Shown here: piece after piece, positions 39,771-64,000 of the stretch
How the letters are laid out: the number at the start of each line of letters is the position of its first letter
Position numbering within the stretch: the first letter of the stretch is position 1
From: Xylographa opegraphella
Lineage: Eukaryota
Reading direction: 5' to 3'
Assembly: GCA_022813865.1 (NCBI GenBank)
Contig: JALDZX010000031.1
Coordinates: forward strand, 186,001-250,000
Length of the DNA: 64,000 nt
Notes under the pieces: model-generated
The model's database searches: none
The model's input: only the letters and a program-made list of their open reading frames with translations
What the model was told of the DNA's origin: nothing
Translations under genes and position numbers: made by a program

Positions 39771-40001
39771 GTCACCCCAAGCATATCAAGGGCGCTGTGG
39801 GTGCACAAGTTACCTGGTCAGACTGTATAGTAAGGCTAGCTTCGATTTCGTATGGTCGGACCACAGCACGGGCTGGCCTGCACCGTCCCGTAATGTCTCG
39901 TTACGAGCTGTAGCAGGCGTCCGCCGCGGCTAATCCTGAAACCATTCCGTCGCAGTGAATTCGTATCATAAAATCAGTGCCCTTGATATGCTTGGGGTGG
40001 C
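39771..40001. mobile_element. Candidate MITE / non-autonomous TIR element (about 230 bp)
   Basis: caccccaagcatatcaagggcgctg (39773-39797) matches the reverse complement of 39975-39999 at 24/25 positions. The interior is non-coding. AAA flanks both ends (possible TSD, weak). Confidence 0.55.
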
Positions 40002-40155
40002 AAAAGTCAAAAAGTAGCGTCGTCTAACGCTAACTCAACTTGGACTAGCGGCTCACTTCGCCCGTCACCTTCCTATTGCTCGGCGGAATCCGGCGGAGGC
40101 TTCCCCACGATACCCACATTCTCACTCAACCAAAGATAAAGATGCAAAAACAAAA

Positions 40156-40274
40156 ACATACAACAGCTGGGATTCGCTGGTGGTCACCCACCCAACTACT
40201 AATCAGCCGATCTCAAGCTTATGTATGCCAGAGCGGACGGGATAGCCAGTTCTCTTGAGTCTGTGGTCGTATGT
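40156..40274 (-). rRNA. 5S rRNA gene (dispersed copy)
   Basis: 119 nt: ACATACGACCA...TCCCGTCCGCTC...TTAGTAGTTGGGTGGGTGACCACCAGCGAATCCC...GTTGTATGT. A T-tract Pol III terminator follows, and TTATAA lies at about -25 to -30. Confidence 0.96.
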
Positions 40275-48063: not shown

Positions 48064-48768
48064 CTACCCACAGCAACCCGTCACCTCATCCGCACCCCTA
48101 AACACCACAATCAGCACCAGCACCAGCACCAGCACCAGCACCAGCACCAGCACCACCATCAGCACACACCACCCCCCCTCCTCAACGCCACAGGTCAGGA
48201 AAAAACTTACACTACCCCCCCCACCAACATCCCCCCGCACAAAAACGACCCCAAAAAAGCCCCGAGCAAGATACAGATGATAAGATACCCATTATAGTAC
48301 ATCGCCAACAACATAACCGCATACGCGGCCGCGAAAGACAAGGTATGGATGCCCGCGCGCACAAGCCGCTGCCTCGTGCGCAGCCCTCTTGCCGGCCGCA
48401 CGCGCAGCCACGTTGCCGGTGGGGGCTTCTCGATCCCTTGCTCCGGCGGCGTCGCGCAGTCGCGGTCGGTGGCGCGTGTGCCTTGCGAGGAGGTGATGAG
48501 GTGGTGGTCGTACTCGCGCTGCGCGCGGCGCAGCAGCTCGAGGGCGAGGACGACGCCGACGACGCCGATGCAGCTGCCGCCGAACATGCCCGCTGAGGTG
48601 TTGTGCCATGTGGAGGCGAGGAAGCACGTGTCGATGGTGTCCCTGTTCCAGAGCATCTGTGGGGACGGTGGGGTGGTGGTTAGCAGGGAGGGATGAGGGT
48701 TGGAATGGGATTGGGGAGAGAGGTACGGAGATCTTGCAGGCGTGGGGGGTGGGGGCGGGCATGTCCAT
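48064..48768 (-). CDS. CTR family copper transporter (3 exons)
   Basis: MDMPAPTPHACKIS joined to MLWNRDTIDTCFLASTWH, the MLLAM (MxxxM) motif and YYNGY...GAFLG. A phase-2 intron at 48098-48210 leads to a final exon GADEVTGCCG*. Confidence 0.92.
48112..48153. repeat. (CAGCAC)7 microsatellite in the CTR last intron
   Basis: Seven perfect hexamer copies read directly from the sequence. Confidence 0.95.
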
Positions 48769-61066: not shown

Positions 61067-62401
61067 ATGGATATTCCGAAGGTGGTACACAGCATTGTCC
61101 TGGATGCGTCGCCCCTGCTTGTCAACGAACCGTCCATCTCAACGCTTTTGGCAAGGGCAGAAAAACTTTATACCATCCCACAAGTCATCACAGAAATAAG
61201 GGACAGAGATGCACGAGCTCGCCTGGAAGCCACAGTGCTGCCTTTTCTCACAGTTCGAAGTCCTCGTCCTGCAAGTGTCACAGTCATCCTCGATTTCGCA
61301 CGCAGGACTGGTGATTTAGCTGTCCTGAGCAGTCCTGATATACATGTTATTGCATTAGCATATGAGCTTGAATGTGAGTTGAACCATGGGAACTGGAGAC
61401 TACGCAAGGTACCAGGCCAAAAGCGCGTAAATGGTCCTCCACCCGACATAATATCCGAGATTTCACCAGATTCTCCAACGCCCGTCCCAGCAACGAAAAA
61501 TTCGATATCCAATGCTGCAGATCCTCTAGATCCCTCTGCGCAGTCGGCCTTGGAGAACCCTTCAGACAACTGTGCTGCAAATCGGTCTGGCGTGCAATCC
61601 TTACTTCTCATATCAAAATCTGACTCATCCAATATCTCCTCCCTGGAGCGAGCCGCCCAGGATCTTCACCTTGAGAGTTTGGAGGATGGAGTTTTTTCAC
61701 ACAAAACAGTTGATGATGTGCAACCAGCCGAAGAAGCTCCAATTTCTGAAGGGGACGAATCGGACTCAGGTGGCTGGATCACTCCTTCGAATATCAAGAA
61801 ACTACAGATAGGAGACCAGTACTCAGCTCCAGCTACAGCACCCAAGAGAGGGAAGATGCAAGTTGCCACTATCACGAATGATTTTGCGATGCAAAATGTT
61901 CTGCTGCAGATGAATCTGAATCTACTCTCAAGATCAATGCTACGAGTACGACAACTCAAAACCCATATTCTACGTTGTCATGCCTGCTTCGAAAAGACCA
62001 AGGACATGACGAAGCAATTCTGTCCGCGTTGCGGCAAACCCACCTTGACCAGGGTTTCCTGCTCTACGAATGCAAACGGCGAATTCCAGATTCATCTCAA
62101 GAAGAACGTCCAATGGAATCATCGAGGGGACCGTTACAGTATCCCCAAACCAGTCTCTAACAACTCTAATGGGAAGGTCGGGACCGGGAAGGGGGGCGGG
62201 AAAGGAGGTTGGGGTCAGGAGCTGATTCTATCAGAAGACCAAAAGGAATACCAACGGGCTATGACGGGACGAAACAGAAAGAAGGAGAGAAACCTTATGG
62301 ACGATGATTACCTGCCTGGCATCTTGACGGGCGAGCGCAACAGAGCCGGTGGAAGACCAAAAGTGGGAGCAGGGAGGAATGTTAATTCAAAGAAGCGATA
62401 G
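61067..62401 (+). CDS. NOB1: 20S pre-rRNA D-site endonuclease Nob1
   Basis: PIN domain (IVLDAS, EIRD, TGDLAVLS.PD), GWITPSN, DFAMQNVLLQM and Zn ribbon CHAC...FCPRCG. Confidence 0.96.
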   Translation: MDIPKVVHSIVLDASPLLVNEPSISTLLARAEKLYTIPQVITEIRDRDARARLEATVLPFLTVRSPRPASVTVILDFARRTGDLAVLSSPDIHVIALAYELECELNHGNWRLRKVPGQKRVNGPPPDIISEISPDSPTPVPATKNSISNAADPLDPSAQSALENPSDNCAANRSGVQSLLLISKSDSSNISSLERAAQDLHLESLEDGVFSHKTVDDVQPAEEAPISEGDESDSGGWITPSNIKKLQIGDQYSAPATAPKRGKMQVATITNDFAMQNVLLQMNLNLLSRSMLRVRQLKTHILRCHACFEKTKDMTKQFCPRCGKPTLTRVSCSTNANGEFQIHLKKNVQWNHRGDRYSIPKPVSNNSNGKVGTGKGGGKGGWGQELILSEDQKEYQRAMTGRNRKKERNLMDDDYLPGILTGERNRAGGRPKVGAGRNVNSKKR

Positions 62402-62516: not shown

Positions 62517-62831
62517 CTATTGCCCCAAGACCTTCTCATTCTCTATGAAGTACGTCAGAATTAGTAGTCATAAATAGCCACCTTCCCTGCATGTACCCAC
62601 TTTGCTGTATTATCAATAGGCCATATCGCTTTTTCAGCGTCACTCGATGCCTGTGAAACCCTGTCAGCTAACCCCTGAGGAACGCCTTCGTCACAGTAGC
62701 TCGTACCTCGAATACTTGTCATCTGGCGAGAAGCGTGCTGGATGGGCGGATTTCGTCACTTCGCTGCCTTGGACTTTCTTCAAGGTGTATGTGCGCTTGC
62801 CGTCCGCATTGAGGGTATACATGAGATGCAT
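62517..62831 (-). CDS. NOP10: H/ACA snoRNP subunit Nop10 (3 exons; last exon tentative)
   Basis: MHLMYTL...YTLKK...[15 protein letters not shown] joined to [12 protein letters not shown]; proposed end QQKNEKVLGQ*. Confidence 0.93.
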
Positions 62832-62982
62832 GTTCGATGGTTTCGGCCAATGATCGAGGAGGCCACAGAGCTGGATCACACCTGGACCGAATTTGAAGAG
62901 GGCGCGATTGAGCAAGTCGAAGGTCGATTTCGGCGTATGAGGTTCAAAAGTTTCCGCGCCGTGTTTGATAGGGCTGTGCGAG

Positions 62983-63012
62983 CTCTTGGCAAACTCTTGG
63001 CAAACTCTTGGC
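62983..63012. repeat. 11-bp unit (CTCTTGGCAAA) about x3 in the NOP10/SEN2 divergent promoter
   Basis: ctcttggcaaa-ctcttggcaaa-ctcttggc read directly from the sequence. Confidence 0.85.
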
Positions 63013-63145
63013 GTTTCAACCGAAATTTCAACTCACTTCCCATCAAATCTCTCATCTCGTGATGAAATCTTGAGGTTGAGTTCAAACCGTATAATGATAT
63101 AGCAATAAGTAAGTGCGGTCCGTCTCATTAGTGTTATTTGTGTTT

Positions 63146-63255
63146 CTGCGGTGATGACACCAATAGATACCTAGAAGAGTGGCTCTGACTTTATGTTATT
63201 CGTCTATGTTGGTTCTATATTCTCTCACGAGAAGACTACAACGGTATCTGAGCAG
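63146..63255 (+). ncRNA. snR79: Box C/D snoRNA, snR79-like (18S 2'-O-methylation guide), intronic
   Basis: Box C GTGATGA (63151-63157), D' CTGA (63185-63188), D CTGA (63248-63251) and terminal stem CTGC/GCAG. The guide AAGACTACAACGGTAT is complementary (one mismatch) to the conserved 18S segment AUACCGUCGUAGUCUU; the D+5 rule points to the C equivalent to yeast Cm1007. It lies in a GTAAGT(63109)...GCTAAT...CAG(63320) intron. Confidence 0.85.
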
Positions 63256-63380
63256 CATTCTTGTTGAATAGTTCTCATCGAAAGATGGACCCAGGCGATC
63301 GCTAATTGCTTTCTCTGCAGATGTATGGAGCACAATTTTAGAAAGTTCAGATACCGTCCGTGTAACTATTCTTCTTGCTC

Positions 63381-64000
63381 ATGTCACATATCACACCCGA
63401 TGAGGGCTCTGTGAATATAGCTGGAATACGCTCCAAGGCAATTACACAGAGCCGGCCTAATCGGCCTAATTACAATGTTCTTCATGCCTTGCCTTTACCT
63501 CTCAGCATATATTCGTTGCCACCACTAATTCTCCACAACCCACTTTCCGTTGTATATTTTGCATATACCTACCTGTATCAGCTGATAGTTCCGCTCTCTT
63601 CCCATCGCAAGACTAAAGTGAAAGCCCACTTCTCTTCTGAAACCCGGTCTGTGCATGTCACCGACCAAAATGCTGCTCGTCTACTTTGGGAAAGTGGATT
63701 CTTTGGTAAGGGAAACTTGAGCAGGAGTGAGCCTAGCTGGCTTGATAGAGAGATGAGGCGAAAGGGCATCATTGTTGGGGAGACAAGTGAGGAGATTACA
63801 AGGCGAAGGCGAGAGGAGAGAAGGGAATTCAAGAAGGAGAGAGCGAGAAAAGAGCGAGAGACAATCGAGAGTTTACTGAAAGAGGAGAAGATTCCAATGA
63901 CTGAAGATCCTCTGGTACAGTCAATAGGTGTGTCTAAGTTTCCCAAGGATCAATCAGAGCTTTCAGGCACAGCAAAGGATACCGACGACCAGGTCATGTC
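63381..64000 (+). CDS. SEN2: tRNA-splicing endonuclease subunit Sen2 (5' part; runs off the window)
   Basis: Manual translation: MSHITPDEG...RPNYNVLHALPLPL...HNPLS...ETRSVHVTD...LWESGFFGKGNLSRSEPSWLDRE...TSEEITRRRREERREFKKERARKE. Confidence 0.9.
   Translation, partial: MSHITPDEGSVNIAGIRSKAITQSRPNRPNYNVLHALPLPLSIYSLPPLILHNPLSVVYFAYTYLYQLIVPLSSHRKTKVKAHFSSETRSVHVTDQNAARLLWESGFFGKGNLSRSEPSWLDREMRRKGIIVGETSEEITRRRREERREFKKERARKERETIESLLKEEKIPMTEDPLVQSIGVSKFPKDQSELSGTAKDTDDQVM

Follow-up and report, generated by a model that had tools for sequence, protein, structure and literature searches.

A probably young inverted repeat in a fungal SEN2 leader is predicted to pair with the 3' end of an intronic snR79-like snoRNA

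In the mammalian SNORD2-EIF4A2 system (Bergeron et al. 2023, PMC10324135), a box C/D snoRNA encoded in an intron pairs with nearby downstream sequence of its host, and the resulting structure is an alternative to the snoRNP that could change how the host RNA is processed. The partner sequence is itself intronic and covers the branch point; the duplex is reported to be highly conserved in vertebrates, and the evidence for it includes PARIS/LIGR-seq, antisense oligonucleotides, and mutants. A second mammalian snoRNA, SNORD86, senses the NOP56 protein and picks between NOP56 splice forms leading to NMD; it is described as conserved in eutherians and involves no anti-guide element (PMC11028025). 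The locus analyzed in the present study lies near one end of a 64-kb stretch of fungal DNA (hereafter the window) and resembles the first of these systems in that an intronic box C/D snoRNA would pair with host sequence shortly downstream, and in that the predicted structure would compete with the snoRNP and could affect processing of the host RNA. In contrast to SNORD2-EIF4A2, the partner is in the downstream 5'-UTR exon of SEN2, the branch point falls in the loop, box D is itself paired, and the element is not conserved in the relatives sampled; whereas the mammalian duplex has direct experimental backing, the SEN2 duplex is a prediction from sequence. SEN2 is also, in contrast to NOP56, not a snoRNP component.

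The snoRNA itself has the same guide and box layout as snR79 and its N. crassa homologue CD18. The latter is listed in PMC2780460 as likewise intronic, with 18S-Cm1004 as its target, and the CD18 passages and supplement rows there name neither a host gene nor a complement in a host. Yeast snR79 is listed in PMC3116282 among the snoRNAs whose C'/D' motif is conserved although the guide next to it is inactive. In the window, the snoRNA has an RUGAUGA C box near the 5' end, a CUGA D box near the 3' end, and a short terminal stem of 3 bp (TGC/GCA), and its guide agrees with the Rfam consensus over GACUACAACGGUAUCUGA. The match to RF01184 scores 37.5 bits (E 0.0024), which is under the gathering score of 55, and the middle of the snoRNA departs from the yeast-based model. 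An alignment of 29 sequences shows no variation in the C box, while the identity of the guide and D box across the same sequences follows from the search pattern, which required them. When compared by eye with the fungal 18S sequence in the available portion of PMC3550802, the guide is complementary to an 18S stretch with one A-C mismatch. A second snoRNA on the minus strand was considered and rejected, as an Rfam search of both strands found the plus-strand copy only. The segment just upstream of and including the D' box (63166-63188; CCTAGAAG...CTGA) is common to many relatives.

Features of the snR79-SEN2 locus. Positions are those of the window; arms A and B are the two complementary segments.
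Feature	Position	Strand	Basis and remarks
NOB1	61067-62401		Pfam PIN_6 and Zn_ribbon_NOB1; right end of window
NOP10, first coding part	62691-62831	-	Pfam Nop10p, 2.2e-16; divergent from the snoRNA/SEN2 unit
Putative leader intron, 212 nt	63109-63320	+	Sequence reading and motif scan
snR79-like box C/D snoRNA	63147-63254	+	Rfam RF01184 match over 63147-63253
C box, GTGATGA	63151-63157	+	
D' box, CTGA	63185-63188	+	
Arm A	63228-63253	+	snoRNA 3' end: guide, box D, and two terminal-stem nt; repeat search and duplex folding
Guide, GACTACAACGGTAT	63234-63247	+	
D box, CTGA	63248-63251	+	
Upstream ORF 1	63321-63341	+	Sequence reading; ATG is leader exon base 1; 6 codons and stop
Upstream ORF 2	63325-63414	+	ORF list; 29 codons; crosses arm B and the SEN2 start codon, in a different frame from SEN2
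Arm B (anti-guide) in SEN2 leader	63345-63377	+	Repeat search, duplex folding, flank shuffles, alignment
SEN2 CDS, 5' part	63381-63998	+	ORF; tblastn to at least 22 loci; continues beyond window edge

The intron assignment is based on a GTAAGT 5' splice site at 63109-63114, a branch motif CTAAT at 63302-63306 with its branch A at 63305, and the AG at 63319-63320, which is the first AG past the branch motif. The leader exon thus defined contains two later AGs (63340-63341 and 63349-63350, the latter inside arm B), either of which, if used as an acceptor, would remove both upstream ATGs. Upstream ATGs in the leader exon are present in several relatives too. A Pfam search with the window's own 206 residues of Sen2 returned no match; the homologue in locus L033, however, carries tRNA_int_endo (3.2e-12) and tRNA_int_endo_N (2.2e-05) domains, and SEN2 is therefore the right name for the open reading frame at 63381. 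The divergent intergenic region between NOP10 and SEN2 also harbors three tandem copies of an 11-nt unit (62978-63012; 13-nt family GCAAACTCTTGGC), located just 5' of the presumed first exon.

A metagenome scan using a 17-nt guide/box D pattern yielded at least 111 loci, 31 of those listed having only 300-nt flanks. Sorting of the 111 listed loci by motif rules gave 48 that were small-subunit rDNA on the opposite strand, 31 that were unclassified, and 32 that were snoRNA-like, and only these 32 were used. By tblastn against all 111 listed loci, a SEN2 homologue was identified downstream of the snoRNA, in the same order as in the window, in at least 22 (L033, L013, L059, L056, L020, L072, L010, L047, L005, L008, L035, L058, L017, L069, L079, L057, L021, L063, L107, L081, L022, and L084), with NOP10 divergent upstream in at least three of them (L033, L079, and L005). 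Among 26 loci read by motif scan, most have a splice donor 5' of the snoRNA and a branch motif and YAG 3' of it, and relatives show this order continuing into a SEN2 open reading frame. The recurrence of this order, together with the splice motifs flanking the snoRNA, indirectly supports the placement of the snoRNA and the SEN2 leader on a shared transcript. The relatives are distant, with Sen2 N-terminal identity of at most 61% and snoRNA identity of at most 83% among the matches listed. An snR79 that precedes SEN2, to all appearances within a leader intron, seems to be widespread in filamentous-fungus-like contigs. A full-text literature search on SEN2 as a snoRNA host gene returned no description of the snR79-SEN2 arrangement. 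The occurrence of snR79 ahead of SEN2 across many such loci, sometimes with divergent NOP10, is the more solid by-product of the present analysis.

Several of the loci recovered in the scan have features of their own. In two nearly identical loci (L011 and L024), the host is not SEN2 but a gene for a lysine- and glutamate-rich protein, with the snoRNA in an intron that separates two coding exons, and one lineage thus seems to have switched host genes. The 48 opposite-strand rDNA loci (for example L018, L030, and L055) have T where the fungal 18S in the portion of PMC3550802 used here has C, and in organisms with T at that 18S site the guide would pair without the A-C mismatch. The SEN2 leaders of one group of relatives (L008, L084, L078, L094, and L010) have a motif of the form ATAGC-TCGTC-TCAC in common immediately ahead of the ATGGCAGAC start (columns about 120-150 of alignment A2), which indicates some constraint on the leader within this clade.

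The defining feature of the window locus is the exact reverse complementarity between TCAGATACCGT (63347-63357), in the SEN2 leader, and ACGGTATCTGA (63241-63251), which consists of the last 7 nt of the guide and box D. A repeat search returned these segments as 11-nt arms, 100% complementary and 95 nt apart. The wider context (63345-63364, GTTCAGATACCGTCCGTGTA; 63232-63253, AAGACTACAACGGTATCTGAGC) extends the pairing on both sides, and RNAduplex reproduced what the initial annotation had proposed, namely 13 bp including one G-U between 63345-63357 and 63241-63253, then a CCG bulge (63358-63360), then 4 bp between 63361-63364 and 63237-63240. To these the program added, beyond a loop at 63365-63369, an outer 8 bp between 63228-63235 (CGAGAAGA) and 63370-63377 (TCTTCTTG), again with one G-U, for a total of 25 bp at -30.6 to -31.3 kcal/mol. 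Two transitions and two length differences separate the present arms, and both non-Watson-Crick pairs are G-U on the transcribed strand, a type of pair that the folding program favours. The placement given in the initial annotation also holds, as the element starts 25 nt past the 3' splice site (63320) and spans 17-36 nt before the SEN2 ATG; with the outer pairs included, arm B ends 3 nt before that ATG.

The initial annotation further claimed that the leader repeats 12 nt of the 18S target of the snoRNA, and the letters bear this out, as 63347-63358 (TCAGATACCGTC) is present in the fungal 18S of PMC3550802, in the portion available, where it is followed by GTAGTC. This identity raises the question of whether arm B is a captured fragment of 18S rDNA instead of a copy of the snoRNA, and position 63358 fits such an origin, being C as in 18S where a perfect snoRNA complement would have T. 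However, the flanks, aligned by eye and without gaps to the available PMC3550802 18S sequence, match at only 3 of 8 positions upstream and about 4 of 16 downstream, so that the identity ends at the 12-mer; an Rfam search of 63300-63420 gave no rRNA-like match at E up to 10; and the complementarity to the snoRNA reaches further, over 25 bp. On these grounds an rDNA-derived origin of arm B was rejected, and we give it hardly any credence.

The same 12 nt could alternatively make the leader a target in trans, with the mature snR79 snoRNP taking it for 18S and either 2'-O-methylating C63355 or merely occupying the leader. The leader and the 18S target site, as represented in the available portion of PMC3550802, have the 12 nt in common, including the same C opposite A63240. 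The register is also correct, since C63355 lies opposite G63243, the fifth nucleotide upstream of box D. Against this, only 7 of the 11 contiguous base pairs are with the guide proper (63241-63247), past which an A-C mismatch and a 3-nt bulge intervene, and the other 4 use box D, which is protein-bound in the mature snoRNP and so not free in the assembled particle. Guide-target duplexes are usually longer than 7 bp, and the element is not conserved in the listed relatives. The snoRNAs with the shortest guide pairings have extra base-pairing, according to sections of PMC3116282. Methylation of the leader at C63355, as the initial annotation had envisaged, is thus unlikely, and we regard trans targeting as a whole as very improbable.

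How readily would such a complement arise by chance? Within 150 nt downstream, an 11-mer complement to any part of the snoRNA occurred in 838 of 300,000 shuffles and one to the guide/box D segment in 78 of 300,000, in agreement with the earlier estimate of a few per thousand for the snoRNA and fewer for its guide and box D. With the core held fixed, shuffling of both flanks gave an extension at least as stable as -31.3 kcal/mol in 28 of 3000 trials, and shuffling of the right flank alone did so in 111 of 3000. The combined odds of a guide-specific core with its extension are about 2e-6, and the duplex energy has a z of -5.14, with none of 200 dinucleotide shuffles as good. The guide complement is a real match and an unlikely one for a single snoRNA.

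A scan of very many windows would nevertheless meet such matches by chance. Under pure coincidence, no special mutational event took place, and a search for snoRNA complements was bound to turn up an 11-mer match somewhere in a very large scan. The less specific rate, that for a complement to any part of the snoRNA, is the one that suits this reading, and the window as a whole is not poor in comparable structures, with 7 perfect inverted repeats whose arms are 11 nt or longer and whose loops do not exceed 200 nt (about 3 expected), and 35 of 5314 29-nt probes that reach -31.3 kcal/mol or better with their next 200 nt. The outer arm, moreover, sets a GA-rich stretch of the snoRNA against a CT-rich leader that is partly common to relatives. 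Set against these points are the combined odds and the energy z-score for this particular duplex, and we consider coincidence without any special event rather unlikely.

The snR79-SEN2 arrangement is retained without the element, and the 11-mer is absent from the 250 nt downstream of the snoRNA in all 32 of the snoRNA-like loci among the matches listed. The best match to it in these 32 loci has 3 mismatches in 7 loci, 4 in 19, and 5 in 6, and the mode of the shuffled null is also 4. In the listed snoRNA-like loci, perfect complements to the guide/box D probe reach 7 nt at most in the next 400 nt, and an equivalent duplex was found in none of the 30 listed loci tested (L045 and L111 were outside this test). 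The duplex z-scores lay between -1.52 and +1.82 for 26 loci and between -0.06 and +0.79 for the other 4, compared with -5.14 in the window. In a MAFFT alignment of the 10 nearest loci (A2), most of 63345-63366 lies opposite gaps in a region that aligns poorly (46% mean identity), and the loci partly have in common a pyrimidine-rich stretch that immediately precedes the ATG. The initial annotation had suggested looking for conservation of the anti-guide across orthologous regions; none of the 32 listed snoRNA-like loci, all of them distant relatives, carries the element. On the loci compared, arm B is outside the conserved snR79-SEN2 arrangement. Because the element is absent from the related loci sampled, a recent inverted repeat seems a better description of it than a regulatory switch of long standing; because those relatives are all distant, there is room for a young, lineage-specific function.

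Weaker pairings among the relatives were also inspected. When the full-length snoRNA was paired with the 200 nt that follow it, two loci stood out, L056 with a z of -2.96 and L079 with one of -3.15, but their duplexes are chains of short helices. A 9-bp stem in L079 (two G-U, inside the intron) and another in L107 (one G-U, about 91 nt downstream of box D) were set aside as within chance expectation, and an 11-nt guide complement in L038 was dropped since the contig is rDNA-like.

The predicted behavior of the stem depends on the context in which it is folded. In 63100-63400, the arm A/B helix has a probability of 0.49 and is missing from the minimum free energy fold, which is unremarkable overall (z -0.52), and enforcing the helix costs 1.1 kcal/mol; in three other contexts its pair probabilities are 0.76-1.0. 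As a whole, the helix has a predicted probability of 0.49-0.99, depending on context. The stem is strong and predicted to dominate the fold in most contexts. For the last 15 nt of the guide/box D segment, the mean probability of pairing downstream is 0.97 in the window and 0.00-0.59 in 26 relatives. The branch A at 63305 and the AG at 63319-63320 fall in the 91-nt loop between the arms and the duplex masks neither, the only AG within arm B being that at 63349-63350. The part of the cis-pairing proposal in the initial annotation that folding supports is structural, as a helix is predicted in the naked pre-mRNA with guide and box D buried and with the branch point and 3' splice site looped out. 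The regulatory switch built upon it is not supported by the comparison with relatives, as the element is carried by 0 of the 32 listed.

A functional switch in cis would operate as follows. When snoRNP assembly lags, the leader would pair with box D and the guide, blocking snoRNA maturation and altering SEN2 splicing or translation, possibly because splicing moves between three acceptors, whose AGs end at 63320, 63341, and 63350, with the two upstream ATGs kept or removed as a consequence. The strength and specificity of the helix, evident from its z-score and from the shuffles of the guide-specific core and of the flanks, are in favor of this model, together with the top rank of the window among 27 loci in guide/box D pairing downstream (0.59 at most elsewhere). 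The position of arm B is suggestive as well, in the exon adjoining the intron, overlapping the AG at 63349-63350 and reaching almost to the start codon, in an exon that opens with upstream ATGs at 63321 and 63325 that the later acceptors would remove. There are also the mammalian precedents, SNORD2-EIF4A2 and SNORD86-NOP56, for which passages of PMC10324135 and PMC11028025 describe snoRNA-host pairing in cis that controls splicing. However, the SNORD2 duplex is reported there as highly conserved (PMC10324135), unlike the SEN2 element. The stem leaves both the branch point and the 3' splice site unmasked. The model must also contend with the order of synthesis, for box D is made 95 nt before its complement, which gives co-transcriptional snoRNP assembly a head start, and with the lack of an obvious reason for coupling one methylation to tRNA splicing. 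On balance, we consider a functional cis switch unlikely.

In a more specific version of this idea, the anti-guide is a recent fungal invention. In this scenario, the SEN2 leader would capture box D and the guide of snR79 when snoRNP assembly is limiting, the stem would shift 3' splice-site choice (63320, 63341, or 63350) so that the upstream ATGs are kept or removed, and Sen2 translation would follow snoRNP assembly capacity. We regard this as quite improbable. If true, it would be the first fungal snoRNA-host cis switch and the first with an exonic partner that pairs box D itself; if the element is functional, snoRNA-host cis regulation would extend from mammals to fungi, and the element would illustrate how a single mutational step can give rise to such a switch.

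The reading that we favor, with moderate confidence, is that arm B repeats, in inverted orientation within the SEN2 leader, the 3' end of the intronic snR79 orthologue, and that this repeat is young and specific to one lineage; little or no selected function is to be expected of it. We count in its favor the absence of the element in the listed relatives, the retention of the host arrangement without it, and the 7 local inverted repeats in 64 kb. We count against it the low chance odds, the strong stem, the G-U pairs, the distance of the relatives sampled, and the coverage by the stem of exactly the functional 3' end of the snoRNA, with a stop 3 nt before the SEN2 ATG. A striking guide complement beside a snoRNA can, if this reading is right, be lineage-specific and without sign of selection.

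As to origin, mutation is the most probable source of the arm B core (about 13-20 nt), and the likeliest event would be a short-range template switch in replication that wrote a reverse-complement copy of nearby sequence, the alternative being plain coincidence. Template switching is documented, in the parts of PMC5453318, PMC8794818, and PMC8604942 used here, as a source of nearby reverse-complement copies and of RNA hairpins. The SEN2 leader resembles the hairpins described in passages of PMC5453318 and PMC8794818 in having a reverse-complement copy of sequence about 100 nt away and a potential RNA stem, and differs from them in that its origin by this route is conjectural. The outer 8 bp would probably stem from a leader that was already pyrimidine-rich and that faced a GA-rich part of the snoRNA.

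The same inverted repeat would have physical consequences in only some transcripts. In unspliced RNA in which the snoRNA is without its core proteins, the arms could form the interrupted 25-bp stem, burying box D and the guide and placing the branch point and 3' splice site in the 91-nt loop. Completed snoRNP assembly or removal of the intron would take the pairing partner away and leave the leader free. Assembly of snoRNPs is co-transcriptional, and because box D is transcribed ahead of its complement, the stem would be expected to touch a minority of transcripts only, namely those that are unassembled or that retain the intron.

The strongest local inverted repeats of the window are located elsewhere: an 18-nt perfect inverted pair with a 185-nt loop at 39776-39996 (-46 kcal/mol) and a cluster of probes at 48349-48600 (-34 to -42 kcal/mol). 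The window also carries a dispersed 5S rRNA gene on the minus strand at 40155-40274 (71.8 bits).
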